Positions 9,805-60,926 of a stretch of DNA of 64,000 bases are shown one piece after another (position 1 is the stretch's first letter; each line of letters begins with the position of its first letter). Below the pieces are notes generated by a model. It searched no databases. It saw only the letters and a list, made by a program, of their open reading frames with translations, and was not told the origin of the DNA. Source of the stretch: a virus; IMG/VR virus record IMGVR_UViG_3300034418_011250, positions 1 through 64,000 of that record; one strand, given 5' to 3'. A program made the translations under genes and the position numbers.

Positions 9805-10475
9805 TATTTCCTCTCAAGCATCATTGGAAAAATAAATCCAAGAATATTTCCACATTGTTTTGCTATCTCAGCATGTTCCTTTTGCGTTCCATTTGAGGAT
9901 CTCAACTCCACATAATGAATCCATGAACGAAGTGTTCCATGCATCATCAATCTGGTTTTTGTCAATCCCTCTGGAAGAACTGCTCTTGCTTGTTCCTTGG
10001 CAATTCCTTGAGCAATAGCCCAATCATAGATTTGTCTTGCCTGTTCAATCAATTCAGACTGCCGTTGATCCCATTGCCAGATGAGTTTCTGATCATCGCA
10101 ATCAATAGAATTTTGTCGATTCTTTATATCCTGAATTCGACATTCTCTTTTGACAAATGTGTTTTCAATCTCATTAGGATTAGCATATCGTTGACTAAAT
10201 TCCTGAAAACTGAAACTGCGATGTCGAACAATCTGATGTGCGATGTCACGTGTTGTTTCAATTTCTAGGCAAGCACTAACCATCTCGAATGGGGACCAAT
10301 GCTTGTGTTTGATAAGGTAGCGTAGGAGCCTTTCGGACGTTTCAGTGTTGTGTTGGTTCGAGGGATTCGATACACGGGCACAATACGCAACGAGATCTTG
10401 GACATTTAAATCCTCCGATATTGATTGCAAAAACTCAGGTGATGCCTGAGTATAGCTTATTAGTTTAACACTCAT
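9804..10475 (-). CDS. thyX: Flavin-dependent thymidylate synthase
   Basis: RHRSFSFQEFSQRY signature, HWSPFE, KEQARAVLP. Confidence 0.97.
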   Translation of the reverse strand: MSVKLISYTQASPEFLQSISEDLNVQDLVAYCARVSNPSNQHNTETSERLLRYLIKHKHWSPFEMVSACLEIETTRDIAHQIVRHRSFSFQEFSQRYANPNEIENTFVKRECRIQDIKNRQNSIDCDDQKLIWQWDQRQSELIEQARQIYDWAIAQGIAKEQARAVLPEGLTKTRLMMHGTLRSWIHYVELRSSNGTQKEHAEIAKQCGNILGFIFPMMLERK

Positions 10476-39101: not shown

Positions 39102-39647
39102 TTAAATGTAGTGCAAATAGCTTCCAACTATATATTTTGGTTTTTTGATAGGTTTTAATCCAGCATGATAATGAGTCCATAATGGTGGAAACATTAACAC
39201 CTTTCCAATCTTCGGTTTTATTTTTATATTAAAGTCTGGGAATACGGTATCACCACCTTTATTATTATTTAAATATATGAAAAAAACCAAAAATCTTTTT
39301 GCTGATGCATAATCTGTAACATCTACATGAGTTCTAAATTGATCTCCATTATCTGGTAAATATCTCTTCATTCTAAAAATTTCAAATCCATATTTTTCTG
39401 GAAATCTATGTAATTCTATCTTTAAATCACTAACATATCTGTATACTAAATTTTTTAAAACATTTTCTAAAATGTCAGAAAAATATTCCCATTCTTTATG
39501 TAATTGCAATTTAACTTGAGTAAATGAATAAAAACTATCTATACATTCTCTTTCATGATGCTCTGTTTTCTTTTCAAAGAAATCTATAATTTCTTTACAA
39601 AAATCTTCAGAAACAACGTTGTTATAACATTTAATATAATTATCCAT
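39102..39647 (-). CDS. 2OG-Fe(II) oxygenase (prolyl-hydroxylase-like)
   Basis: [21 protein letters not shown]. Confidence 0.85.
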
Positions 39648-40698
39648 TCAATAACTCAATTTCTGTAGATTCTTCAGTCTCCTCTATTTTCTGCTGTCCA
39701 TATTTAAATTCTTTTTTGGCAAAATCATCAAGTTGTTTCATAATTTCTTCTGTAAAGAATTTCTCAGGATCATTGTTAATTGTTTTTCCAAATGTTTTTG
39801 ATCCATCTGGCAATTCAATTCTTGTTGATACTGCTTTGAATATTCCATGCTTCAATGCAAGTTCCAGCAATCCATAATAGCGATCCAATCCACTGTCATA
39901 CATCAATCTAACATCAACTTGTTTATTCTCAACAGTCAATCTAGATTTAGCATTTTTACAATGAATTATATTTCCTACAACTTCAGTCCCATCCTTTTCT
40001 TTCTTCTTTGAAAGATACACAATAGAACTAGCAGCATATTTTAATCCTGAACCACCACCCATTTCTTTGGCAGGAAACATCGAACCAACAACATCATAGG
40101 TATGATTTGTGACTACCATAGGTATTTTAGCACGTCCAAGTTTAAGTGTCAAGACTCTAAATGCAGCTTTGATCACCTGAGCTCGAGTCATATCTCTTGT
40201 TTCTTTACCATCAGATGTATCTTCGACTTCTTTGGTTGTTGAAAGCATGCCAAGAGAATCCAGACAAATCATCATTGGTTTTTTATTATCAGATTCAATA
40301 TATTTGTCAAGAACTTTTATTGCTTGCGTTCTAAATTCCTGAACTGTGGTGACTGGAAGTATCACCATGCGACTCGGATCAATTCCTCTGTCAATAATCA
40401 TCTGCTTTGTAATAGCAGATTCTGATTCAAAATACAAAACTCCTGCCTCTGGATTAGAATCTAGAAAACTCTTAACCATTCCCAAAACAAAAAATGTTTT
40501 GCCTGTTGCCGACTCACCTGCAATGGCAGTAATCTTATTTGATGGTAATCCTCCGAAAATAGAGCCAGAAAGAAGTGCATTGAATATATATGATCCAGTA
40601 TCAATGAATGAATCAACATCTCCTGCCTCAACACCATCCGATACCAATGCAGCGTATTCATTTCCAGCAATCTTTGCTATTTCTTGAAAAAAATCCAT
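39640..40698 (-). CDS. uvsX: RecA-like recombinase
   Basis: [30 protein letters not shown]. Confidence 0.95.
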
Positions 40699-41102
40699 TA
40701 TACATCCTTCTGCGCTCTTTTCTCAGAGCGAATCTTTTCAAATCCATTAGGATATCGTTGTTCTAACTTTTTAATATTTGCTTGTAATATGTCCTCAATA
40801 GTAACACCCAATGACATGCAGCCTTGTGCCACATACCACATGACATCACCAAGTTCTTTCACCATATGCTCTTTGACTTCAGCATTCAAATCTTTTCCTT
40901 GAAACAAACATTTTTTGACTAGATCACCAAATTCACCTGCTTCAGCTGATAATCCAAGTGCAGCTGTGATCAATCTTTGAGGTGGAACTGCATGCTGGTT
41001 TTCCATTTTTGAAAGTGATGCGTCAAACGGAAACTTTAGTCTTGACTCCTCACTTGTCACACTATTCACAAATGCAACATAATCTTCTGTAAATTTACTC
41101 AT
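40698..41102 (-). CDS. mazG: MazG-like nucleotide pyrophosphohydrolase
   Basis: [29 protein letters not shown]. Confidence 0.9.
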
Positions 41103-41679
41103 CTATAGATTCTCCATTCATTTTTAGTTGATTCATACACCATCTGATGTGCTCTTTCATCTGAGAAACTGTAAGAGCCTTGGCATGCTCTCGTATCATG
41201 ACTTCTGGACCTTGTCTTCCATCAACAGGAGGTAATGATCCATAAACACTTTTATATTCAGAAATCAATTCTGATTCTTTTCCATGAGCTTTCAGTTTAA
41301 TCTCTGGACCATATCCCATTGGAAAGTATGCTACATACAAATGTCTTTTGTTTTCTTCTCCGTAGATTGCTCGGAAATACATTCCGTTCTCGTATGGATT
41401 CTTTTGACTCAATCCACGAATGACTGTTCCTGAGAAATCTAATGTTCTTGAGCAGATTCCTCTTGCAGTCGAGCTACCAGCTGTTCCAATATAAATCACA
41501 CGCTCATCTAAATGATCAGGTGTTTCATTTACAATCTCACCTGTTGGATCGTATGCATAAAGATAACAACCACCCATGTTAAATCCACGATCATCTTTTT
41601 TCGCAAAACCAACATAATCGTTGTCAAACTTGGCTCGTTGATCATTGGGGAAGATTGACAACCACTTTGTAGCTTTCAT
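41095..41679 (-). CDS. GIY-YIG-like protein
   Basis: GCYLY...IYIGTAG...R; E..LI..Y...YG.LP. Confidence 0.5.
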   Translation of the reverse strand: MKATKWLSIFPNDQRAKFDNDYVGFAKKDDRGFNMGGCYLYAYDPTGEIVNETPDHLDERVIYIGTAGSSTARGICSRTLDFSGTVIRGLSQKNPYENGMYFRAIYGEENKRHLYVAYFPMGYGPEIKLKAHGKESELISEYKSVYGSLPPVDGRQGPEVMIREHAKALTVSQMKEHIRWCMNQLKMNGESIDE

Positions 41680-41723: not shown

Positions 41724-41752
41724 ATTATCTTCTTTCCCTTAGGAAATGTCAA
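41724..41752 (-). promoter_or_regulatory. sigma70-like promoter
   Basis: TTGACA-N17-GATAAT. Confidence 0.65.
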
Positions 41753-42305
41753 GCATTTTTTTCATGAATTCTACAATTTTTTCTGTATCATCTGGAGTCT
41801 CGTGAACAAACGTCTTCACGCAGCCTTCTTCCTCTCCGAAAAGAGTAGCTCGTGGTCCAAAATGCTCAAGAATATTTTGAACCTTTGTCTTGGTAGTCTG
41901 AATGAATTTTTCAGATTGATCAGATCCTCTTTCTTTGTATCTTCGTTGTCTTTCTTCATCTGAAACTGTCAAGTGAATAATTGTCAACGAATCACCACAT
42001 GATTCAAAAAACTTCTTGTTGTTGAGACGATCTCCTTCGCCCACAATCATCTCATTTGTTCTCAAAACATTTGAAATCCAATCAATTGCTTTCGGAGCCA
42101 CTGCCATCGAAAGTCGATCTGTTCCTCCAAAAACTTCTTCATCATTATATTTTCCAAGCACTCTCAATTTTTTTTCTTTAATATATTGAGTATCAAGTAA
42201 ATCAGCTGGACGATCATCCTTCCAACCTTCAAATCCACTCATAAAGTTTCGCATCACAGTGGTCTTTCCAGTTCCTGGAATACCAATCAAATAAACTATC
42301 TTCAT
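41739..42305 (-). CDS. P-loop kinase (5hmU-DNA kinase-like)
   Basis: GIPGTGKTT, GTDRLS, GEGDRL. Confidence 0.75.
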   Translation of the reverse strand: MKIVYLIGIPGTGKTTVMRNFMSGFEGWKDDRPADLLDTQYIKEKKLRVLGKYNDEEVFGGTDRLSMAVAPKAIDWISNVLRTNEMIVGEGDRLNNKKFFESCGDSLTIIHLTVSDEERQRRYKERGSDQSEKFIQTTKTKVQNILEHFGPRATLFGEEEGCVKTFVHETPDDTEKIVEFMKKMLDIS

Positions 42306-43726
42306 TGAAAAAATCCTTCTAATGTAGGTTTTTGAGCATATGCTTCTGGATGATATTCTTGCACCATATCCCTTCCACCTTTGTCCTCTAGAAAATCATA
42401 CCATTCTTTCTCATTGAACATATTCGGTGAAACACCATTCCAATATTGTTTCCAAAGTCTATGACCTTTATTCAATCTCCTTGTGTCAACAAAGTTTTTA
42501 CGAATAGCTTCATATTCCCATGATCCAAGATTATCCATATCTTCACGGAAATAGAATACTAATGACATTCTCATCATGTTTTCTTCACCAGAATCTGGAG
42601 CAGTAATCGGTGTATTCCCATGAATAACACGCATGTTGTCAATTAGCAAAAGATCTCCAGGTCTGACATTGACAGCCATCCGAACTTCTGGAACAACCAA
42701 ATATCCACCTTTCCAGTCTTTGTTATCCTTTGTGATTACTGTTAGATTGCTATATCCAGCATTCAAAGAACCTGCATCTCGATGACATGCCATTCTGGCA
42801 TTTCTTTCCTTTGTTGTTGTATTGACAGTAATCGTGGTGAATGTAGTATCTTCGCCAATGAGAAATTTATTGTCGAGTCTATCAGCAAATTCTTGTTGTG
42901 CCAAATGTCGATTTGGCATTAGTCTTTTGAATTCTTTCTCCAGTTTTCTAGCAAACGGATAACATTTTGCAAACTGCTCAAGATTATTATCAGTATATGC
43001 TGTTGCTCTTCCATATGGAATTCTTGGATATCTTCCATAGTAACCAGCAATACCTGACCAAAGACCAGCAGCATATGCTGTATTTGAAATCCATTTTTCT
43101 CTTACAAGTTTTGAAAACTTTGTTGCCTCTTCAATTGGCATTGCTTTTATTCTACTCACCAGCTTAGGAAAAAATCCATCATATTCAGGATAATCTTGTT
43201 CTACAACATCTCGCAACCAACAGAATCCTCTGGTATTCTTGACATATTTTCCAAGATGTTCTTCCATAATAGTCTGTAATGGATCTGTTCCATCAAGACT
43301 TTTTGGTTGTCCTGCCATAAAATACTCAAGCACATCATATTGATATGGTGTTACCCATTCTCTTCCTGCTAGCTTTTCTGTTTTTGGACCAGCTGCGAGT
43401 CCTCGATTATGAGATTCAGCTGCAGCATCAAACAATCCTTCAAATGCACCTTGTTGTTCCTCAGCAGTAAAAACATTTTTTCTAAATTTAAAAGCAATTT
43501 TGCTTTCATCCGCAAGATCTGTATGATACTCTTTTTTATCATAATTGTATTCAGGTGGAAAGTATAAATCTGTATCACTATCAATCAGAATATCATATGA
43601 TTCATCATTAACATATGTTCCCAAAACTTTTTCTTCATCAAGAACCTGCATGGCAACATAAACATCTTGTCCTTCATCCCCTTTATATTTCTGCCACTTA
43701 TTTCCATTTATTTCTAAAATTTCCAT
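42302..43726 (-). CDS. TET/JBP-family 2OG-Fe(II) dioxygenase
   Basis: FTTITVN, ACHRDAG (HxD), GDLLL..HGNT, RMSLVFYFRE. Confidence 0.8.
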   Translation of the reverse strand: MEILEINGNKWQKYKGDEGQDVYVAMQVLDEEKVLGTYVNDESYDILIDSDTDLYFPPEYNYDKKEYHTDLADESKIAFKFRKNVFTAEEQQGAFEGLFDAAAESHNRGLAAGPKTEKLAGREWVTPYQYDVLEYFMAGQPKSLDGTDPLQTIMEEHLGKYVKNTRGFCWLRDVVEQDYPEYDGFFPKLVSRIKAMPIEEATKFSKLVREKWISNTAYAAGLWSGIAGYYGRYPRIPYGRATAYTDNNLEQFAKCYPFARKLEKEFKRLMPNRHLAQQEFADRLDNKFLIGEDTTFTTITVNTTTKERNARMACHRDAGSLNAGYSNLTVITKDNKDWKGGYLVVPEVRMAVNVRPGDLLLIDNMRVIHGNTPITAPDSGEENMMRMSLVFYFREDMDNLGSWEYEAIRKNFVDTRRLNKGHRLWKQYWNGVSPNMFNEKEWYDFLEDKGGRDMVQEYHPEAYAQKPTLEGFFQ

Positions 43727-44727
43727 CAGAATGCCTCCAGTCCCATTAATTGTTTTGTAAATGTATTGTTGTAATCTATAACACCTGTATTTAGAAAAAT
43801 TTCCATCTTTGTTTTGTTTATTTTGTTTATCAAGTATTCTCTTCGTATTGACTCATCTCTACATTGCCATAATGGTGTCCAGTCAATTCCATCCCAACCA
43901 TCACGCTCTACTTGTTTAATTTCTTCAGCTTGTCGATCTAGATAATAACCAAGATATCTGCCATTTCTTTTACGGAATAGTTTTTTGAATGAACAAAGAC
44001 ATGTTTCCATTGCAAAATAATCAGCCTTGTTTGCTTGTTCTGGAAACAATGCTTTAACCTCTTTAAGAATCTCAGATCCTTGACTTTCCATCCAATCAAT
44101 TTGATCTTGATCTAGAACCTTGTCAACCCAATCATCTTTTCCAAGAGCAAAGCATAATCCATTTCGATGTGATCTAGATCCTGAATAATCTTTCAACCAA
44201 AGATTATCAATATCAATATTTAATCCGCATGTTTGTTTTAAAGTTTGAATATAGAACCATGACATGTATCTTCCATACTTGTGCCATGTGTTTACTTCTT
44301 TCCAAAGATTATAAAAATTGGTAAATGGATCTTCTGTGAACAAACTTTGGAATGCTTCAAGTTGACTTCTGCCACCTACCCATTCTTTGTATGAAAGAAA
44401 TTGAGCAGGAAGATGTCCTTTATTCCATTTTGTGTCTGTTTGGTATCTGAGTCTTTTGTAATTTTCAGTATTCCATTGCTCAAGTCGATCGACTCCAACA
44501 AGTTCCATGTCAGGAAATTCATTCCAGATTACGTATGCAGTCGGAAAATGATAAGTTGTGCCATATATCCATGTGATCCAAAGTCTTTGTTCGATATTGA
44601 ATTCAAATCTGTCATAAAAATAATTCAACATGTAAAGAGCAGGATCGCAATCATCTATAATCAGCGACCATCCAAACCAATCAATGAATGCTCTTTTTCT
44701 ATTTTCCAGCAAACGATAATCCATCAA
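43726..44727 (-). CDS. aGPT-PPlase / amino-acid:DNA transferase family protein
   Basis: DCDP, YGRYMSWF, ETCLCSFKK, RYLGYY. Confidence 0.75.
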   Translation of the reverse strand: MMDYRLLENRKRAFIDWFGWSLIIDDCDPALYMLNYFYDRFEFNIEQRLWITWIYGTTYHFPTAYVIWNEFPDMELVGVDRLEQWNTENYKRLRYQTDTKWNKGHLPAQFLSYKEWVGGRSQLEAFQSLFTEDPFTNFYNLWKEVNTWHKYGRYMSWFYIQTLKQTCGLNIDIDNLWLKDYSGSRSHRNGLCFALGKDDWVDKVLDQDQIDWMESQGSEILKEVKALFPEQANKADYFAMETCLCSFKKLFRKRNGRYLGYYLDRQAEEIKQVERDGWDGIDWTPLWQCRDESIRREYLINKINKTKMEIFLNTGVIDYNNTFTKQLMGLEAF

Positions 44728-45368
44728 AACTTCTCTAATGAAGGTACATCAAAAAGATAATTTCTTAGCCAATATTTTCCGACCTTTGTTATGGAGTCCT
44801 CAACTTTTTGTCGCTTCACCTTTCCGAACTTATGATAATCTATACTCTCTTTTCTCAAAAGATCAAGAACTTTTTTGTCTGTAGGAATCGCAATAGAGGG
44901 ATTATTTATAGCTTCTTCTCGAAAGCTCAATTGTTCTTCTTTCGTGGAAAACAATGGTTGATCTGATCTCAGAGATCCGGATGAGTCAACAGCCCAGAAT
45001 ACCAATCCATTTCGAATATGCCAGCTAATAGAAGTTGGTGTGCAAGATATTTTCAATCTTCTCATTTGATTTTTATATGCATCATTCATCACATATTCCC
45101 AGATTAAAGAGGCATATCCTTTTCCTTCATATCCTTGGAAAGTCACAATCTCGTAAAGATTGATATAAGAAGTTCTTTTACTATATGTAGCGAATACAGC
45201 AGAGACTGGTTGATCATTGTCATACATTACTATTGGAGGATTTTTGTCATAGTTTTTAAAACGAATCCACAAACTATGAGCAGAATTTAAAAACTTGGTA
45301 TTGGTGCCATTTTCTGAATTCTCAATAATGTTATTAATATTTTCATGGTTGTTGGTCTTGAATATCAT
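44724..45368 (-). CDS. GNAT acetyltransferase
   Basis: Motif A-like YEGKGYAS; WHIRNGL. Confidence 0.7.
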   Translation of the reverse strand: MIFKTNNHENINNIIENSENGTNTKFLNSAHSLWIRFKNYDKNPPIVMYDNDQPVSAVFATYSKRTSYINLYEIVTFQGYEGKGYASLIWEYVMNDAYKNQMRRLKISCTPTSISWHIRNGLVFWAVDSSGSLRSDQPLFSTKEEQLSFREEAINNPSIAIPTDKKVLDLLRKESIDYHKFGKVKRQKVEDSITKVGKYWLRNYLFDVPSLEKF

Positions 45369-46005
45369 GAGGGTTCTTTACTTTTCTTTCTCCTTGATTT
45401 GTGTATTTTACATACATCTCACATCTTTGTGGATTTTGCAATCCACTTCGAATGGCAATATCTTTTGTTGATGTGAATATAATTCCTCTTTGCAATTTTG
45501 TATACCATAATGGTCTTGATTCATTTCTAAATCCTGTAATACCATTATCAACATCTAACATCACGACTGCCATGCTAGATGGAACAAAGTCTGTCAATGG
45601 ATTTTTATTATTCTCAAGTGATTGTAGAATCAATTCACTATCATTTGCAGTCTCCGTTTCGTACTTCCATGTACTTTGATCTTCCTGAGAAATCACCCCA
45701 TTATGAACAATGCTATATTTATCTGAAGAAAATGGTTGAGGATATCTTAGATCAGATGTTGAATAACGAATATGTCCCAGCAAACAGATCGAACCATCTT
45801 CATCGATACATCTTTCAAAATTTATTTTTTCAAGAAATTTGTCTGCTGGAATATTTTCTTTTTTGGTTAGTATTTCAGAATGCTTTCGATATGAAATACC
45901 AGTAGCATGTTTTCCTCGAATCATTGTCTGTTTGAATATTTTTCTTATCAAAGAAATATCTTGATCATTGACATCCGTTAATTCGATTCCTATAACTCCA
46001 CACAT
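45343..46005 (-). CDS. Class II glutamine amidotransferase
   Basis: N-terminal MCGVIG, RGKHATG, GHIRYST, HNG, NDSE. Confidence 0.88.
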   Translation of the reverse strand: MCGVIGIELTDVNDQDISLIRKIFKQTMIRGKHATGISYRKHSEILTKKENIPADKFLEKINFERCIDEDGSICLLGHIRYSTSDLRYPQPFSSDKYSIVHNGVISQEDQSTWKYETETANDSELILQSLENNKNPLTDFVPSSMAVVMLDVDNGITGFRNESRPLWYTKLQRGIIFTSTKDIAIRSGLQNPQRCEMYVKYTNQGERKVKNPHDIQDQQP

Positions 46006-46214
46006 TATGCTACCAGCCAGAATTGTTTATTTAAAATGGATTCTAATCGTACTGAAGTAATTACTCCATATCCTTTTTCTTTCTCAGGAAGAACTACTGG
46101 ACTACCATTTTTCCAATGTATGTAGACCATACTACCTTTAGGAAGAGCATTTGTCAAGTTCTTTGCTTGTTTAAATATTAATTTCTGTGCATCAATTCTA
46201 GTCATACTATTCAC
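46005..46214 (-). CDS. Hypothetical protein
   Basis: Coupled ORF between gp43 and GATase. Confidence 0.5.
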   Translation of the reverse strand: MNSMTRIDAQKLIFKQAKNLTNALPKGSMVYIHWKNGSPVVLPEKEKGYGVITSVRLESILNKQFWLVA

Positions 46215-48727
46215 CCAAAGAAATTGTCAAGTGTTGGCTGTGTTCCATATGTACGATCAATATCCCAGCCGATTTGGCGAACAATGAACATCAATGGTTC
46301 CACAAAAGCCTTTTCGAATTGAACTTCATAATCAACATATGAAGCCACATCTAGTTCTTTTGGCAGTTTACTAATAAAAGAAATTACATTTGACTGTAAT
46401 GGATTGGGCTTTCTTAGATTGAGAAATTTGATCTTTTCACCTTCTTGAATCAAAGGAAATTTAGAGATCAATTTATTACGTTTGAGAAGATAATTATAAA
46501 TCAATGCTCCTTTGCAATGCATTGGAGTTGATTTACGGTAAATAGAGGATGAATCACTCCACTTGTCAAGTCCATTGACGGATCTTGGAAATGCGATATC
46601 CTCTGCAGGAAGTTTCATGAATTCATTTCTAAAGTTCTGAATGAATTTATTAATCTGTGTTTCATCACCAGACATGATAACCTTGAGAGCCTCCTTAATC
46701 TTTTCTCTGCAAGGATATGGAGTTGATGATTTGACAGCCTCAATGCCCATAATTTTCAATTGAGGATCAGCATATCTGACACCTTCGATATCCCACGCAT
46801 TCAGAATATATCTTTTCTTTGCAACCCAGATGCCTTTGTCAGCAATCACCTCTCGTTTCATCTGCATCTTCTGAGAAAATGCATTCATGTATTGTTTGAG
46901 TTCTTCATAGCATTCATCGATGTATGGTTCTACCTTCTCTTTGGCAACTGTATCAAGAAAAGAAACTACTTTCTCAATAGAAAGATCTTCACCGAATACT
47001 TTGTCAATAAGTTTATCAAAACAAATATAAACTGAATCTGTATCAGATGCAATCACATAATCTTCATTTTTAGTTTTAAGAAGATTGTTGAGATATTCAT
47101 TTAGCTTTCGTTCAATCCAGCGAATCGAAAGCTGACCAGCAGTGGTTACACCTTCAGCAATCGCAAGATCAAAGTATCGGAACCATTCATTACCAATAGC
47201 ACCATAGGCTGAGTTCAATGAGATCTTTCTTGCCATCTGAATGTTATTATAACGTGACACATCATTCAGATATTGAGGATTCTTAGTATTCTCATATTGT
47301 TGTTTCGCATGAAGCATCTTTTTCTTGTATGTTGTTCGATCATCATACAGCTGCTGCATCATGGCAGGAAGAAATCCTTGTTTGGAAATTCTGAATTTGG
47401 TTCCATTTGGTGTCATCGTCAAATTCTTTTCCTTCAGGAATTCTGTATCATACTCCTTGGATACAAACTCACCAATCTTAGTATCACCAAAGTTTACACC
47501 ATCATCAGCCAGAGTTTCTGGAGAGATATTGTATTGAATTATCAAGTGTGGATACAATGAATTCAAGTCAAACGAAAGAACCCATTTATGTTGTCCAACT
47601 GCTGGATCCTTGACATATGCTCCGGAGAATTGTCCAGACTTCGAGGATGAGCTCTTTTGTGGAATCACAATGTTTTGTGTTCGCAGATGATTGTAAATTA
47701 GCACATCCCAATATTTTACTGAAGTAAATGCATCTTGGAAGTTGACTTTTGCTTCATATGCCATAGTCATCAACAAATCCATTAGCTTCATTTTAGCATC
47801 TAGACGTTCTACCAGAAGAACATCTTGAATATTGTAATCAATGAAACTTTGATAATCTGATGTGTACCATTCCTTAAATGTTTCATAAGGATTCTCATCT
47901 TTCCTTTCTCCTAGTTCTACAAATGCAATATGGTCAAGTTTATATGATTCCTGATTTGTATAGGTAAACTTTTGATACAATTGTTGATAATCAAGATTAG
48001 AAATGCCTAGAATCTCATAAACAGTATTGGTCTTTCCGAATTTACCATTTATCTTTTTCTCATTGACAATCTTCCAAGGAGAAAGTCTTTTCAGTGCATC
48101 ATTACCAAATATACGTTTGATTCGATTGCAGATGTAAGGAATATCAAAGAATTCAGTATTCCAGCCTGTGATTGCATCTGGATGAATTGATTCCCACCAG
48201 TCAATGAATCTGTTTAGAAGTTCGACTTCATTCTGGCACTGATTGTATTGAACAAATTCATTATCTGTTTTGTATTCACCAATACCCCAAACAATGATGT
48301 CATCAAATCCATATCTTTTGACAGTGATTGAAAGAAGTTCTTCAGCAGCAATTTCTTGATTGGGAAATCCATTTTCGCATTGAACTTCGATGTCAATCGT
48401 ATAGACTTGCATCAAAGATCGATCGAATCGAATATCTTGATAATTGTCCGCAATATAAGTATAGACAAATTGATTCAATCCATAAACCAATTCAGGTTGA
48501 TTCTCATAATGAGAAACAAATTCTTTGGCTTCTTTGATTGTTTCGAATTTTATGGGTGAGACTGAGGAACCTTCCAAAGTTTTGAATTTGGAAGGTTTCT
48601 GAGAAGGAACATAGAGAGTAGGCTTGTATCGAATAGCCTTGTTGAATCTTTCACCATTCTTTACACCACGCAGGAAAATATTGTTTCCCCACTGAGCCAC
48701 GTGCGTATAGAAATTCATAGCAAACAC
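46211..48727 (-). CDS. Family B DNA polymerase gp43
   Basis: DIEV, GWNTEFFD, FDLNSLYP, KISLNSAYG, SDTDS, KKRY. Confidence 0.98.
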   Translation of the reverse strand: MFAMNFYTHVAQWGNNIFLRGVKNGERFNKAIRYKPTLYVPSQKPSKFKTLEGSSVSPIKFETIKEAKEFVSHYENQPELVYGLNQFVYTYIADNYQDIRFDRSLMQVYTIDIEVQCENGFPNQEIAAEELLSITVKRYGFDDIIVWGIGEYKTDNEFVQYNQCQNEVELLNRFIDWWESIHPDAITGWNTEFFDIPYICNRIKRIFGNDALKRLSPWKIVNEKKINGKFGKTNTVYEILGISNLDYQQLYQKFTYTNQESYKLDHIAFVELGERKDENPYETFKEWYTSDYQSFIDYNIQDVLLVERLDAKMKLMDLLMTMAYEAKVNFQDAFTSVKYWDVLIYNHLRTQNIVIPQKSSSSKSGQFSGAYVKDPAVGQHKWVLSFDLNSLYPHLIIQYNISPETLADDGVNFGDTKIGEFVSKEYDTEFLKEKNLTMTPNGTKFRISKQGFLPAMMQQLYDDRTTYKKKMLHAKQQYENTKNPQYLNDVSRYNNIQMARKISLNSAYGAIGNEWFRYFDLAIAEGVTTAGQLSIRWIERKLNEYLNNLLKTKNEDYVIASDTDSVYICFDKLIDKVFGEDLSIEKVVSFLDTVAKEKVEPYIDECYEELKQYMNAFSQKMQMKREVIADKGIWVAKKRYILNAWDIEGVRYADPQLKIMGIEAVKSSTPYPCREKIKEALKVIMSGDETQINKFIQNFRNEFMKLPAEDIAFPRSVNGLDKWSDSSSIYRKSTPMHCKGALIYNYLLKRNKLISKFPLIQEGEKIKFLNLRKPNPLQSNVISFISKLPKELDVASYVDYEVQFEKAFVEPLMFIVRQIGWDIDRTYGTQPTLDNFFG

Positions 48728-48777: not shown

Positions 48778-49169
48778 GCTATTTGTTCCTGCCTCTTTTT
48801 TCCAATATTGTATTTTGTCTCAAGAACCCATTCATCCTTCTCCTTGAATCCGATGATCTTGATTTGTGAGAGAGGAGCCTTTGGCTCTGCCTCCCCATGA
48901 ACTGTGACAAGATCCCAGTCCTGAAGAAGCCCAGCAATGGTATTCCTTCGAGAAATATCATTTTCATTTATGTTGGTTTCTTTTCCATCAAGAGCAAATA
49001 ATTCCTTGAAATGAACAATATAATATTTGCCTTGTTTGTGAAGAATATGGCAGGATTGAAATAGTTTCTTTTCTTTACGAGATGCAACACCTATTCTAGA
49101 AAGTGTTTCACGAACCTTAAGAAAATCATCAGGTTCTTTGATTGTTACTTCTAACATGTTATTAATCAT
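48774..49169 (-). CDS. regA: Translational repressor RegA
   Basis: DDFLKVRETLSRIG, QSCHILHKQGKYYIVHFKELF. Confidence 0.97.
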   Translation of the reverse strand: MINNMLEVTIKEPDDFLKVRETLSRIGVASRKEKKLFQSCHILHKQGKYYIVHFKELFALDGKETNINENDISRRNTIAGLLQDWDLVTVHGEAEPKAPLSQIKIIGFKEKDEWVLETKYNIGKKRQEQIA

Positions 49170-49555
49170 TTTCTTCCACCTTTGTTCAAGCTATCTTTGA
49201 TAGTAGTAATTTGTTCATCAGATAGTAGTTCAAGAGCAGCTTTAGCTTTATCATTACTATAACCATAATACTCTTTCACATACTCCAGATCCTTAATCTT
49301 ATTTGCTTTCAACCATGGTGCAAATCTTTTCTTGGGTCTAATTGTATTTATAAAAAAGTCAAATTTGAGTTTATTATCAATTTGATGATGAACATTCATC
49401 TCATTTGCAAACATTATGGTGTCTTGAAATGAAGATAAGATATGATTGACAACATATGCTGGATACTTCTTTTCCCACATTGGATCATCAGAATCCATCA
49501 AGTTTTCTTTTGTGAAGTTTATTGCATTCAAATACTCCTTTAGTTCATAACTCAT
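49166..49555 (-). CDS. Clamp loader small subunit gp62
   Basis: YLNAIN, KKRFAPW, VKEYYGYS. Confidence 0.93.
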   Translation of the reverse strand: MSYELKEYLNAINFTKENLMDSDDPMWEKKYPAYVVNHILSSFQDTIMFANEMNVHHQIDNKLKFDFFINTIRPKKRFAPWLKANKIKDLEYVKEYYGYSNDKAKAALELLSDEQITTIKDSLNKGGRK

Positions 49556-50487
49556 TTAAACCTCACATTTGACATGATTTCTGTCATACAAGCTAACAGA
49601 TTGATCTCTTGGTCACTGACAAATGCAGACTTATATTGGTAATCTGCAATAATTAAAACCAACTGTGGAACACTAGCAGGTTCCAATCGTTCATATAGAG
49701 TATCGTAAATTTTACGATAGATTCTAGTAGGATCATTATCAAGATTATTTGCAACCCATTTCCTCAAATTACCAAATTCTTTTTCTTTAAGAAAACTTGT
49801 CATTTCTTTCAAGTTCTCGTCTGAAATATTTACAAGAATACCAGCATCGATTTCACCTGATGCTGAATATCTTTGTAACTCATTTAAACACCTTCTCCAA
49901 TCAGGAAAAAATTTCTCAATTATCCCTGCAACAGCCTTTGGATTAAACTTGACATTTTCTTCTTCTAATATCTCAGTGATACGTTTAAAGAATTGTGCTG
50001 CAAGTTTGGGTTTCTCTTCATTTGGTATTCTAAATTCAACGACAGAACATCGTGAATGTAGTGGTTCAATGATGCGATTCTTAAAATTACAAGTTAAAAT
50101 GAATCCGCAATTTTTATGAAACTCCTCAATGAATCCACGAAGAGCAGGTTGAGTTGATTGGGGATTTAGATAATCTGCCTCATCAAGAATTACAAACTTT
50201 CTGTTTGTATCAAATGAAACAGTAGATGCAAAGTTTTTAATCTTGTTTCTGAGAACATCAATACCTGATTCCTCAGAACCATTGATCATCATGTATGTGG
50301 CATCAATTTGTTGCAACATAGCCTTTGCAACAGTAGTTTTACCTACTCCTGGACCGCCTGAAAGCAAAAGATTAGGAATATGTTCATCATCTACAAATTG
50401 TTGAAATGTATTCTTCAATTGTACTGGAAGAATACAATTCTCAATAGAGTCTGGGCGATATTTTTCTACCCACAAATAATTTTTCAT
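49552..50487 (-). CDS. Clamp loader large subunit gp44
   Basis: WVEKYRP, GGPGVGKTT, DEAD, SRC. Confidence 0.97.
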   Translation of the reverse strand: MKNYLWVEKYRPDSIENCILPVQLKNTFQQFVDDEHIPNLLLSGGPGVGKTTVAKAMLQQIDATYMMINGSEESGIDVLRNKIKNFASTVSFDTNRKFVILDEADYLNPQSTQPALRGFIEEFHKNCGFILTCNFKNRIIEPLHSRCSVVEFRIPNEEKPKLAAQFFKRITEILEEENVKFNPKAVAGIIEKFFPDWRRCLNELQRYSASGEIDAGILVNISDENLKEMTSFLKEKEFGNLRKWVANNLDNDPTRIYRKIYDTLYERLEPASVPQLVLIIADYQYKSAFVSDQEINLLACMTEIMSNVRFK

Positions 50488-50511: not shown

Positions 50512-51183
50512 TCAATTAGACTCAAGCGCAACATAATACTCTAGATCTTGCCCTTTCTTTTTAAAATGCGAAATACCAACACTAGCAATTCCTACCTCAT
50601 AATCTCCAGGAAGAACTTTTAGATTTTCAGTCTTAAAACATGATGTAAGATTGGTTGTTGAAGAATCACCAACTACAAGTGAAAATGTATTTGATGTATC
50701 ATTCTTTCGATCAGTAACAGTCATTTGAACTTCACCTGATTCATATGAATTCACAACAAGATCTGGTGTTCCAAGAATTGCAGCTGATCTTTGAATTTGA
50801 GAAAACTCTTCTTGAGTCAATGTAAATTGAACATCAATAACTGGCATTTGAATGTCTGTTTTTGGTTCCTTCACCATGTCAGTAGGTGTGTAAAAATATT
50901 TACTAGAAGTTTTGCTTCCTTCTTCCTGAATAAGAATATATTTTTCTTCAAAATTCAAGATTGGTGTTTTGAACAGAGAAAGTGTTGAAAGAAATTCGTT
51001 CAAATCATAAATAGCACACTCCTGCTCAAAGTCTTCTGTAATATTTGCGATTGCTACAATGTTTTTCATTGCACTCATTGTCGCAACTTTATTTCCTGGT
51101 TTGATTAACAAGTTTGAATTGATTGTTGAAAAGTTCTTCAAAATTTCACGAGTTTCATTACTCAGTTTCATTAGTTTCTCCAT
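50512..51183 (-). CDS. Sliding clamp gp45
   Basis: MKLSNET..ILKNFSTIN, IYDLNEFL, YYVALE. Confidence 0.95.
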   Translation of the reverse strand: MEKLMKLSNETREILKNFSTINSNLLIKPGNKVATMSAMKNIVAIANITEDFEQECAIYDLNEFLSTLSLFKTPILNFEEKYILIQEEGSKTSSKYFYTPTDMVKEPKTDIQMPVIDVQFTLTQEEFSQIQRSAAILGTPDLVVNSYESGEVQMTVTDRKNDTSNTFSLVVGDSSTTNLTSCFKTENLKVLPGDYEVGIASVGISHFKKKGQDLEYYVALESN

Positions 51184-59273: not shown

Positions 59274-60335
59274 TTAAATTTCCAATTCACTTGCTTCTAA
59301 ATATAATGACTTCATCATTCCAGACAATCTTTGCTTGTCAAGAGATATTTCAAGTTCATCAATATAATTTTCTAATAACGAAACAGTATCTTCAGATTTC
59401 TCAACAATATCATCTGAAACATTATCAGCATCTAAATCTGAAAAATCCTCAATAATCTTTACTTCATGTGCTGTGCTTTTTAGAAGTTTATCAATGAACA
59501 AATCAAATCCATAAAGATCTGTTTTGTTTACAACTACAACCTTGGTGTATTTCTCATGTACAGTATTAAAATCAAAATTAGAATAATCATAATTTCTATC
59601 GTCATAATATAACTTGTAGAAGATGGTGTGAGGATTAACGATTCTTTCTAATTCACGAGTCTTGACATCAAACACATGAAATCCTCTTGGGCATTTATAA
59701 TCAGCCCATGTTATTTCATATGTATTTCCAAGATAATATATTTGTCCATCATCTGACTTCTTATGAAAATGACCAGAAAATACTAAATCAAATTTATTAA
59801 ACAAATCTTTATCATAACCTCCTTGAGCATAATTACCTGAATGCATTTCAAATCCATTGATTTCCAAATGCCCCATGGCAATCTGAGCTTTTGTTGCTTT
59901 AATCTTTTCCATGGTGTCAGCATAGTTTTCACTATTGATCCATGGAATCATTAAAATAGGAGTATGATTAAATTTAATCTCAGAGCATTCTTGATAAATG
60001 TGAACATTTGGAAATTTGCCTGTAATCAATTCTGTCAATGAATTTACTTCATTGGTGTTTCGATAAAATATATCATGATTACCCACCAACATATGAAGCT
60101 CTATCTTCATATCAAAGAAAGGTTGTAAAAATCTTTCACGAAAATCTTTGGCAATTCTATATGAAACAAATTTTCTTCGATCCATAACATCACCAAGATG
60201 AAGAACATGCTTTATATTGTTCTCTTTCAAATATGGAAAAAATGTTTCTTCCCAAAATTTGTAAAAGAAATCATTAAAAATGATACTGTCCGACCTAGCT
60301 CCGAAGTGACTGTCGGTAATTAATGCTACTTTCAT
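59274..60335 (-). CDS. Recombination endonuclease subunit gp47 (Mre11-like)
   Basis: DSHFG, LGD, GNHD, GHLE, SGHFH. Confidence 0.96.
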   Translation of the reverse strand: MKVALITDSHFGARSDSIIFNDFFYKFWEETFFPYLKENNIKHVLHLGDVMDRRKFVSYRIAKDFRERFLQPFFDMKIELHMLVGNHDIFYRNTNEVNSLTELITGKFPNVHIYQECSEIKFNHTPILMIPWINSENYADTMEKIKATKAQIAMGHLEINGFEMHSGNYAQGGYDKDLFNKFDLVFSGHFHKKSDDGQIYYLGNTYEITWADYKCPRGFHVFDVKTRELERIVNPHTIFYKLYYDDRNYDYSNFDFNTVHEKYTKVVVVNKTDLYGFDLFIDKLLKSTAHEVKIIEDFSDLDADNVSDDIVEKSEDTVSLLENYIDELEISLDKQRLSGMMKSLYLEASELEI

Positions 60336-60859
60336 GCTTTACAAAATTTCTCAAGTCCTTTTGGTTTGTCAACTTTTTTCTTTTTAGTTTTATAAACTTC
60401 TTCATCTGGCAGGTAATTCTTTTGAAGATAATCAGTATAATAATTGGTTAGATCTTCATTGTCTTCTATTCCAATAATGGATGGATCAAAATTAATGTTT
60501 TCAATTATTTTGTGTTTGATATGTTGTTGTTTCTTTTCCTTTTGAATTCTTCGCACAAAAGCATAGAATACTATTTGTGTGAAATAACCGAATGGATTGT
60601 TGTATTTTTCGTGATCAAAATTGTGGGCATATTGTATACAATTCTCGATTCCATCAAGAATCATTTCATCTTTGTAAGTATAGTTGATGAAGTTTGGGCG
60701 ATAAGAAAGGTGAGTTGCAATCTTTAAAAAACACTCTCCAAGATATTCTGGAATTGGTGGTGTTTCTTCTCCTAAATCCTCAGCTTCAATATAACTTTCC
60801 CTCCACTTTTTAATAGCTTCATAAAATTCATCATTATTGATGTAATGTTTTTTCTTCAT
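60332..60859 (-). CDS. Late sigma factor gp55
   Basis: HYINN, LSYRPNFINYTY, DGIENC, NPFGYFTQ, RRIQKEK. Confidence 0.96.
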   Translation of the reverse strand: MKKKHYINNDEFYEAIKKWRESYIEAEDLGEETPPIPEYLGECFLKIATHLSYRPNFINYTYKDEMILDGIENCIQYAHNFDHEKYNNPFGYFTQIVFYAFVRRIQKEKKQQHIKHKIIENINFDPSIIGIEDNEDLTNYYTDYLQKNYLPDEEVYKTKKKKVDKPKGLEKFCKA

Positions 60860-60883
60860 AATACTCCATGAAAAATAAAAACC

Positions 60884-60912
60884 ATTATACCTCAGAAAAA
60901 AATAATTGTCAA
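60884..60912 (-). promoter_or_regulatory. Consensus sigma70 promoter (gp55-gp47 operon)
   Basis: TTGACA-N17-TATAAT. Confidence 0.85.
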
Positions 60913-60926
60913 GCAAAAAAAATAAC

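Follow-up and report, generated by a model that had tools for sequence, protein, structure and literature searches.

Among the closest described relatives of the pathway considered here is that for 5-acetamidomethyl-deoxyuridine (5-acetamidomethyl-dU, 5-AcNmdU) in Pseudomonas phage PaMx11, whose genes are gp46 (an amino-acid:DNA transferase, AADT/PUGT), gp47 (a flavin adenine dinucleotide (FAD) lyase), gp48 (a GNAT), gp49 (a kinase) and gp51 (a dUMP hydroxymethylase) (Lee 2022; PMC11472151). The intermediate 5-PmdU, the cysteine-dependent mechanism of the AADT and the acetylation of 5-aminomethyl-dU (5-NmdU) by a GNAT are established (PMC8989533, PMC11472151). In gp46, where E243 and C247 are the catalytic residues, the cysteine adds to C6, after which the phosphate departs and the exocyclic methylene is attacked by an amine (PMC11472151), and every AADT characterised so far uses amino acids (PMC8989533, PMC11472151). 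Contigs joining TET_JBP with thymidine-hypermodification genes were reported by Lee et al. (2022; PMC8989533), who called the role of the 'glutaminotransferase' unknown, and O'Toole et al. (2026, PNAS; PMC13229309) described a ParB-dependent subclass of TET/JBP-family 5-methylpyrimidine dioxygenases (5mYOX) that is 'consistently linked' with glutamine amidotransferases (GATases), with P-loop kinases and with AADTs. Here we analyze a 64,000-nucleotide stretch of viral DNA (the window; positions 1 to 64,000 of IMG/VR record IMGVR_UViG_3300034418_011250, an 88.9 kb contig that is about 49% complete and has ~121 genes), in which five minus-strand genes code for a GATase, a GNAT-like protein, an AADT, a 5mYOX and a kinase (Table 1). 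An earlier note on this DNA had remarked that similar gene neighborhoods had been predicted before, and rightly so: the joining of TET/JBP with GATase, kinase and AADT is the type described in these two papers, and the cassette is another example of it.

We suggest that the cassette carries out post-replicative hypermodification of thymine by enzymes tethered to the sliding clamp, with 5-AcNmdU as the product, and taken as a whole we consider this explanation somewhat better than an even bet. The 5mYOX would hydroxylate thymine in DNA to 5-hydroxymethyluracil (5hmU), and a kinase of the 5-hmdU DNA kinase (5-HMUDK) type would phosphorylate 5hmU to 5-PmdU. Cys245 of the AADT (formerly aGPT-Pplase2) would then attack C6, so that the phosphate is expelled and an exocyclic methylene is left, to which glutamine-derived ammonia from the stand-alone GATase would add to give 5-NmdU. 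Finally, the GNAT would acetylate the amine to 5-AcNmdU, the base known from PaMx11, and the whole route would run without a dUMP hydroxymethylase, glycine or an FAD lyase. The first three steps are carried over by analogy from homologues, and the last two, amination by ammonia from glutamine and acetylation of the product, we would place just short of an even chance. The general course proposed in the earlier note, from T to 5hmU, phosphorylation and displacement by nitrogen through the AADT, is supported by family membership, gene context and the biochemistry of homologues (PMC13229309, PMC8989533, PMC11472151). Its statement that no biochemical demonstration of the route was known holds in part: phage T-dioxygenases were shown in 2026, and 5-NmdU and 5-AcNmdU are known in PaMx11, but the PaMx11 route differs. 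Our literature search found no paper demonstrating a glutamine-dependent route.

The enzyme assignments of the earlier note hold up in Pfam, where Tet_JBP, ADDT and Ploopntkinase3 all score above the gathering score, and the catalytic motifs, read from the translations, are intact and invariant across homologues. The 5mYOX matches Tet_JBP (PF12851) with 53.3 bits against a cut-off of 34.9 (E = 2.5e-14), and the Fe(II) triad H315-x-D317 and H369 and the 2-oxoglutarate (2OG)-binding R386 are invariant in 21 sequences. By hhalign it aligns end-to-end with gp18 of phage HTVC112P (probability 99.8, E = 4e-29, 282 columns), and it also aligns with the enzyme of phage P12024L (E = 6e-22) and with the TET of phage Melnitz that is linked to a C5-methyltransferase (E = 5e-10). 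Relative to HTVC112P gp18 its insertion (about residues 120-215) is larger by ~100 amino acids (aa), and its C-terminus is extended by 63 aa, which bear the tail discussed below; its metagenomic homologues number ~2100. The kinase matches Ploopntkinase3 (PF18751) with 55.7 bits against a cut-off of 27 (E = 6e-15), has the Walker A sequence GIPGTGKT and is 23% identical (E = 3e-4) to PaMx11 gp49, a kinase-like gene beside the characterised gp46-48, where the 5-HMUDK would be; in related loci it always occurs together with an AADT. The AADT itself matches ADDT (PF18724) with 80 bits against a cut-off of 26.2 (E = 2.9e-22) and PHROG 3271 (7.5e-63), and is about 28% identical over 95% of its length to the AADTs of ViI-like Ackermannviridae (E down to 7e-34). 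Its invariant E241 and C245, in 'METCLC', align with the catalytic residues of PaMx11 gp46 in 'VETILC'. Searching the PDB with the AADT by sequence or profile did not retrieve the gp46 structure.

The GATase is of class II, the N-terminal nucleophile (Ntn) type, and matches Pfam GATase_6 above the gathering score (1.4e-8), the GlmS-type PHROG (5e-21) and the N-terminal domains of AsnB, PurF and GlmS in NCBIfam (each about 1e-8). Across 19 homologues C2, R30-G31, H78/R80, H101-N102-G103, N121-D122 and the C-terminal D217/Q219 are invariant, and these include the full glutaminase residue set (the nucleophile C2, R80, N102-G103 and D122). With its 220 aa the protein is a glutaminase domain only, without a fused acceptor (synthase) domain, and its partner must therefore act in trans. 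The family has an invariant C-terminal D-L-Q of its own (D-Q-Q in the window), preceded by a linker of 0-30 residues, and this ending may be a docking peptide for the acceptor enzyme.

The GNAT-like protein is divergent and stays below the gathering score of Acetyltransf_1 (19.0 bits against 20.7, E = 1.8e-3). Its AlphaFold2 (AF2) model, made from an alignment of 17 sequences, confirms the GNAT fold, with a predicted local distance difference score (pLDDT) of 93.3 and a predicted template modeling score (pTM) of 0.85, the disordered last ~9 residues being the only low-confidence segment. Foldseek with this model against the PDB gave 255 matches at E<=1e-3, with probability 1.00 to many GNATs; among the top matches listed almost all are GNAT acetyltransferases at E ~1e-5, including SpeG, EctA and PaiA, and the closest ESM Atlas clusters are viral GNATs. 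The beta4-alpha3 pyrophosphate loop, E81-G82-K-G84-Y85-A86, is invariant in the family and matches the loop of 1y9k in the alignment, with Glu where the Q/R-x-x-G-x-G/A consensus has Q/R. By tblastn against 50,697 cultured phage genomes the protein has no homologue.

We screened 80 IMG/VR loci with the proteins of the window, and found the 5mYOX to be the constant element and its partners to be modular. The five-gene cassette of the earlier note is real: its minus-strand genes are coupled, and the set of GATase, divergent GNAT, AADT and kinase was found again, in either of two gene orders and at 47-70% protein identity, in over 20 distinct contigs, so that the arrangement is not due to chance. 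One variant (L036) has a canonical Acetyltransf_10 GNAT in the same slot and another (L086) has no GNAT, whereas a larger one (L012) consists of GATase, an amidoligase-like gene, a canonical GNAT, a 438-aa open reading frame (ORF), AADT and kinase. Without a GATase there is a variant with a divergent AADT-like gene, a 349-aa ORF, a kinase and a second 2OG oxygenase (L071), and in a last group (L016, L028, L043, L050, L064) the partners are DNA glycosyltransferases (TAGT PF20691 or GT1) or sugar-nucleotide enzymes, among them UDP-galactopyranose mutase. All 30-plus untruncated loci with the close AADT clade (>=51% identity) have the GATase, and none of ten with the divergent clade has it. This strict pairing, the non-orthologous replacement of the GNAT and the variant lacking it fit a route by ammonia and acetylation. 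Among the cassette and its immediate neighbors we found no tailoring enzyme of the FAD, pyridoxal phosphate (PLP) or radical S-adenosylmethionine (SAM) type, the only extra genes being glutaminase and GNAT. Since the methylene intermediate accepts any amine, and an FAD lyase, PLP decarboxylase or radical-SAM enzyme is not among the genes, we favor ammonia as the simplest reading.

What suggests a link to replication is the C-termini. The 5mYOX, the AADT and the GNAT share a tail with the consensus [ST]L[DE]xF(F), which the GATase and the kinase do not have, and in the window gp43 ends in ..QPTLDNFFG and the gp55-type sigma factor in ..KGLEKFCKA. A scan of the last seven residues for L[DE]x[FWY] finds the tail in five of the ~121 genes of the record, namely gp43, gp55, 5mYOX, AADT and GNAT (Fisher p = 3e-4). 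The same scan of G001, an independent 153 kb genome with a 43% identical polymerase, finds it in five of ~211 genes: polymerase, AADT, GNAT, 5mYOX and a 96-aa ORF. This ORF (L107:11569-11859; G001 144569-144859, minus strand) ends in ..NSLEGFM and has no family match, and in size and tail it would suit a late co-activator of the gp33 type. When dereplicated homologues are counted across the related loci, the tail is present in 48 of 50 5mYOXs, 23 of 33 AADTs (most others have close variants), 15 of 18 GNAT-like proteins and 6 of 7 DNA polymerases, in none of 29 GATases and none of 25 kinases, and in 23 of 705 other genes. About 20 of these 23 are no more than a few kb away from the dioxygenase, mostly immediately downstream of it, and those identified are glycosyltransferases (TAGT/GT1), canonical GNATs and nucleases (HNH-type and endonuclease VII-like); the sugar-nucleotide enzymes of the same cassettes have no tail. 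Just downstream of the dioxygenase lie GT1/TAGT (PF20691) genes with tails such as ..TLDSFFG and ..TLEEFFG (L028:4843-6192, L043:2301-3101, L050:6168-6995, L064:8062-8877), and small endonuclease VII-like and HNH ORFs beside it also end in clamp-type tails (L039:4824-5174, L042:8887-9375).

In the 5mYOX family a variable linker precedes the invariant L469, E470, F472 and F473, and the tail tracks that of the polymerase of the same phage: TLEDFFG (polymerase) and SLEEFFV (5mYOX) in C48C1, TLDSFFA and TLGDFFV in DLP_6, and DLSSLFD and ..GATLF in Cr30, where both have ..LF and a neighboring 308-aa protein ends in ..DLSKLF. The 5mYOXs of phages that are not T4-like (HTVC112P, P12024L, S-CBWM1) have no such tail. 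In the Nonlabens siphovirus P12024L (L095:3746-6011) a neighbor of the 5mYOX ends in ..NQLEIF and a DNA methyltransferase in ..QQTLF, which recall the bacterial beta-clamp motif QLxLF, and the same principle might here be applied to the clamp of the host. In T4 itself the tails read from the genome are ..ASLDFLFG for gp43 and ..PSLDFLYEAND for gp55; those of gp43, gp55 and gp33 are interchangeable ligands of gp45 and conserved in T4-like phages (PMC2988020), and T4 alpha-glucosyltransferase binds gp45 according to Sommer (2004) as cited in PMC13216743. Because the tails in this genome are limited to gp43, gp55 and cassette enzymes, follow the polymerase tail and are absent outside T4-like phages, we think that the tailed enzymes probably dock on the gp45 sliding clamp. 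In this way the 5mYOX, AADT and GNAT, which must find bases in duplex DNA, would dock by their tails on gp45 left on new DNA, and the clamp would take the part that ParB plays for the ParB-dependent phage T-dioxygenases. ParB, which in other systems is itself a DNA clamp, is needed only on duplex DNA, and ParB-less clade C1 enzymes expressed alone are inactive in E. coli (O'Toole 2026, PMC13229309); the paper makes no mention of gp45 or T4-like phages. More tentatively, and at rather less than an even chance, we speculate that in T4-like phages the whole pathway, together with the glycosyltransferases of sister cassettes, uses gp45 as a toolbelt replacing ParB, with the GATase feeding the AADT in a direct route to 5-aminomethyl-dU.

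We found no ParB_N domain in the 88.9 kb record or in five related T4-like records, among them C48C1 and DLP_6, whose genomes are complete, and the 85%-complete G001, the last having the gene set of the window in a different order. A fused or adjacent ParB was considered and rejected, as Pfam at E<=10 returned nothing for the 194-aa ORF (orf194) beyond the kinase, the 69-aa ORF (orf69) preceding the GATase or the N-terminal half of the 5mYOX. Alignment of the 5mYOX N-terminus with the HTVC112P ParB by hhalign was likewise negative, this half being ordinary 5mYOX sequence with the large insertion.

The substrate of the 5mYOX appears to be thymine rather than 5-methylcytosine (5mC). Phage 5mYOXs of the clades that lack a methyltransferase are thymine dioxygenases in vivo and in vitro (O'Toole 2026, PMC13229309). 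As the earlier note had it for the window, thyX is present and a dUMP hydroxymethylase or DNA methyltransferase is not found, and this extends to the 88.9 kb record, in which we found no ThyA-like hydroxymethylase or methylase and no C5, D12 or N6/N4 DNA methyltransferase; the five related records also contain no C5-methyltransferase and no ThyA-like enzyme. ThyX makes ordinary dTMP, and thymine would thus enter DNA unmodified. Melnitz, which serves as a natural control, has its C5-methyltransferase directly beside its Tet_JBP protein, a TET different from the 5mYOX of the window, which in turn is much closer to the ParB-linked enzyme of HTVC112P than to it. It is the lack of a C5-methyltransferase or ThyA-like enzyme, the adjacency of the methyltransferase and TET in Melnitz and the nearness of our 5mYOX to the methyltransferase-less HTVC112P enzyme that point to thymine. 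The Melnitz locus (MZ577097.1, L099:4010-8386) is the same polymerase-to-MazG interval, and contains the HhaI-like C5-methyltransferase, the 328-aa Tet_JBP protein (..NLNDFLGE), a 427-aa protein and a Ploopntkinase3-like kinase; the interval looks like a hot spot for the exchange of DNA-modification cassettes.

Several points weigh against the pathway that we propose. The alignment of the AADT to gp46 is at motif level only (hhalign E = 0.096). The AF2 model of the 5mYOX, from 21 sequences, has a pLDDT of 50.6 and an unfolded core, which leaves the fold to rest on sequence, and in the PDB its profile matches clavaminate-synthase/TauD-type enzymes (in the C-terminal part), not TET2 or NgTet1. 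The record is about half complete, so that a methyltransferase or a ParB could sit in the remainder. Class II GATase domains are normally fused to an acceptor domain, and stand-alone proteins of this fold, such as EgtC, can be amidohydrolases. Moreover, an amino acid may serve as the nucleophile, as it does in all AADTs characterised so far (PMC8989533, PMC11472151); among these, the ViI-type enzymes are full-length homologues of the one in the window. If so, the route would be shared as far as 5-PmdU, the AADT would transfer a free amino acid (glycine, serine, glutamine or glutamate), the Ntn 'GATase' would be an amidohydrolase acting on the adduct or an ammonia source elsewhere, and the GNAT would acylate the adduct to give an acylated amino-acid-thymine. 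The unexplained 'glutaminotransferase' of Lee 2022 (PMC8989533) would leave room for this, as would the amidoligase-like gene and 438-aa ORF added in one cassette variant (L012), which shows that the GATase also sits in more complex pathways. Still, we consider transfer of an amino acid unlikely: tailoring enzymes of the PLP, FAD or radical-SAM kind are absent from the cassette, the GATase retains all its glutaminase residues, its strict pairing with one AADT clade is what is expected of an ammonia-channeling pair, and the exocyclic-methylene mechanism takes any amine nucleophile (PMC11472151).

The pathway could also start from another base, with the dioxygenase acting on 5mC made by a methyltransferase of the host or of the missing half of the genome, and a hypermodified cytosine as product. 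Phage TETs of clades A and B do oxidise 5mC, some of their clusters adding P-loop kinases (PMC8256090), Melnitz combines a C5-methyltransferase, TET and kinase at this very locus, and only 49% of our genome is at hand. We nevertheless hold this to be very improbable, given that a C5-methyltransferase is found neither next to the 5mYOX nor elsewhere in the 88.9 kb, nor in the five related records, that in known 5mC systems the methyltransferase adjoins the TET, that the 5mYOX is closer to the ParB-linked enzymes without a methyltransferase, and that every AADT and 5-HMUDK partner characterised works on 5hmU. Action on free nucleotides, tRNA or a small metabolite instead of DNA, to which the weak and local similarity of the 2OG-oxygenase core to small-molecule oxygenases of the clavaminate-synthase/TauD type might point, strikes us as hardly credible, for Tet_JBP, AADT and Ploopntkinase3 are DNA-acting families matched above the Pfam cut-offs, the cassette lies inside the replisome gene block, relatives have TAGT-family DNA glycosyltransferases as alternative partners, and three enzymes bear polymerase-like tails. 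As to these tails, they might not be clamp motifs at all, but serve another partner (gp32, RNA polymerase), complex assembly, degradation or localisation. Their register differs from the SLDFL[FY] of T4 (SLDFLF in gp43), the kinase has no tail although it is also a DNA-acting enzyme, and in DLP_6 and Cr30 the ends of the gp55 homologues are less similar, all of which also counts against docking on gp45. Against this, the other carriers in two independent genomes are gp43, gp55 and one gp33-sized ORF only, the corresponding T4 tails can replace one another as gp45 ligands and are conserved among T4-like phages (PMC2988020), the tails vary with the polymerase tail phage by phage, and homologues from phages that are not T4-like are without them, so that we judge a function other than clamp binding rather improbable.

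The source of the cassette is a marine phage, and a T4-like one, as the replisome block runs gp45, gp44, gp62, regA, gp43. By polymerase the nearest cultured relatives are phages of OM43 (Methylophilales), with Melnitz at 66% identity, followed by cyanomyoviruses at ~52%; megablast of the cassette against cultured phage genomes gave no match. Seven tightly packed minus-strand ORFs fill the interval between gp43 and MazG/UvsX, and from the gp43 stop through the kinase there is an overlap of 1-26 nt at each junction, and the genes are translationally coupled. The cassette had been described in the earlier note as lying directly downstream of the DNA polymerase; it does follow gp43, but the 69-aa ORF intervenes, so this is approximately right. 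That ORF has no match in Pfam or PHROG and is seen only in close relatives among the 80 loci, at 79-94% identity. At the other end, orf194 likewise has no Pfam or PHROG match; it holds a GIY-YIG-like 'VIYIGTAGS...R' stretch and is kept beside the cassette in close relatives. A promoter and terminator scan found no more sites than in shuffled sequence, and the sigma-70-like sites at 48777-48749 and 41752-41724 are possible transcription-unit boundaries at most.

Table 1. Features of the cassette and its surroundings in the window, in order of position.
Feature	Positions	Strand	Size	Remarks
ThyX flavin-dependent thymidylate synthase	9825-10406	minus		PF02511 1.7e-45
UvsX	39640-40698			flank beyond MazG
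MazG	40698-41102			flank of cassette block
orf194	41095-41679	minus	194 aa	59-nt gap after kinase; unrelated to cassette
Five-gene cassette (GATase, GNAT-like, AADT, 5mYOX, kinase)	41739-46005	minus		
P-loop kinase, 5-HMUDK type	41739-42305	minus	188 aa	no clamp-type tail
5mYOX, TET/JBP family	42302-43726	minus	474 aa	ends ..KPTLEGFFQ; proposed T -> 5hmU in DNA
5mYOX tail PTLEGFFQ	42302-42325	minus		putative gp45-binding motif
AADT	43726-44727	minus	~332 aa	ends ..GLEAF
AADT tail ..MGLEAF	43726-43746	minus		putative clamp-binding motif
GNAT-like, divergent GNAT-fold acyltransferase	44724-45368	minus	214 aa	ends ..VPSLEKF; proposed N-acetylation of aminomethyl group
GNAT-like tail ..PSLEKF	44724-44744	minus		putative clamp-binding motif
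GATase, stand-alone class II (Ntn)	45343-46005	minus	220 aa	starts MCGVIG; proposed ammonia donor
GATase C-terminal D-Q-Q	45343-45360			D-L-Q in family
69-aa ORF	46005-46214	minus	69 aa	between gp43 and GATase; translationally coupled at both ends
gp43 family B DNA polymerase	46211-48727	minus		PHROG 262, 1088 bits
gp62 clamp loader	49166-49555			near gp45; PHROG 225 4.8e-43
gp44 clamp loader	49552-50487			adjoins gp45; PHROG 168 3e-123
gp45 sliding clamp	50512-51183	minus		PHROG 223 1e-70
gp55-type late sigma factor	60332-60916	minus	194 aa	PHROG 234 1.8e-60

The relatives of the cassette show other combinations. C48C1, DLP_6 and Cr30 have the dioxygenase family with other partners only. In one contig (L016:9437-13812), and also in C48C1 (L001:7416-9448), the genes after the dioxygenase code for an NAD epimerase, a protein of 349 aa, UDP-galactopyranose mutase and a protein of 462 aa, a gene set that may be a route to galactofuranosylated hydroxymethyluracil. 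A peptide deformylase adjoins the dioxygenase in distant T4-like phages, upstream in L012:7478-8005 and L016:7469-7969 and downstream in DLP_6 (L002:7305-7862). The 425-438 aa protein of the amidoligase variant (L023:5723-7000), which ends in ..VLDAFEN, weakly matches ParB-like partition proteins in PHROG (E ~4e-4) and might represent a component related to ParB in a T4-like cassette. In the cultured Pelagibacter podovirus HTVC112P (L094:3081-5303) a ParB-like gene is followed by the 5mYOX and an FkbM-type methyltransferase, which makes this isolate a candidate carrier of a ParB-dependent T-dioxygenase system.

Hypermodification of thymine protects the DNA of phages against restriction and CRISPR nucleases, and supplies DNA-modifying enzymes. 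The dioxygenase family abounds in marine T4-like phages, as the number of its homologues indicates, and its products may be widespread in ocean viral DNA, where such modified DNA could distort the results of sequencing and of methods that rely on restriction. Amination of phosphomethyl-uracil driven by glutamine would, if true, be a new enzymatic reaction for an AADT. Tethering to the clamp, if it occurs, would give a simple physical reason for modification after replication, in parallel to the binding of DNMT1 to PCNA in eukaryotes, and the lack of a phage clamp and loader would then explain the inactive ParB-less clade C1 enzymes in E. coli reported in 2021 and 2026.

Compared with PaMx11, the cassette has in common the clustering of a P-loop kinase, an AADT with the E...C motif and a GNAT, and the same predicted 5-PmdU, 5-NmdU and end product, the GNAT and AADT being remotely similar to the PaMx11 proteins. 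The two differ in that 5hmU would here be made in DNA from T by a dioxygenase, whereas PaMx11 incorporates hmdUTP, and in that the window has a GATase in place of the glycine/FAD-lyase step and, in addition, clamp-type tails. With ViI and M6 (Lee 2018, 2022) it shares a homologous AADT, the kinase family and the post-replicative mode; these phages instead use a dUMP hydroxymethylase, amino-acid donors and PLP or radical-SAM tailoring, and have no dioxygenase and no GATase. The clade C1 ParB-dependent 5mYOXs (PMC13229309), which we liken to ours by description, also lack an adjacent C5-methyltransferase and have a C-terminal extension beyond the core and linkage to GATase, kinase and AADT, and the 5mYOX of the window is a full-length homologue of the ParB-adjacent HTVC112P enzyme. 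In contrast to them, no ParB was found in our record or in the five related ones, the 'vi' insertion is larger, the tail is gp43-like, and the proposed loader is the gp45 ring rather than the ParB CTPase clamp.

Like the T4 clamp ligands gp43, gp55 and gp33, the tailed enzymes end in a short acidic-hydrophobic segment after a variable linker, but with the register L[DE]xFF instead of LDFL[FY], and here the tail is on several enzymes of one modification pathway. T4 alpha-glucosyltransferase is a precedent for a DNA-modifying enzyme that binds gp45, yet does so without such a tail. Amidotransferases of the Gat-QueC/ArcS type reportedly occur in phage 7-deazaguanine DNA modification, where they supply nitrogen; they differ from the GATase of the window in the base, which is G, in the acceptor chemistry and in being fused rather than stand-alone. 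Set beside these systems, a GATase-coupled AADT clade with a predicted direct route to (acetyl)aminomethyl-uracil, and clamp-type tails on its DNA-acting enzymes, would count as new.

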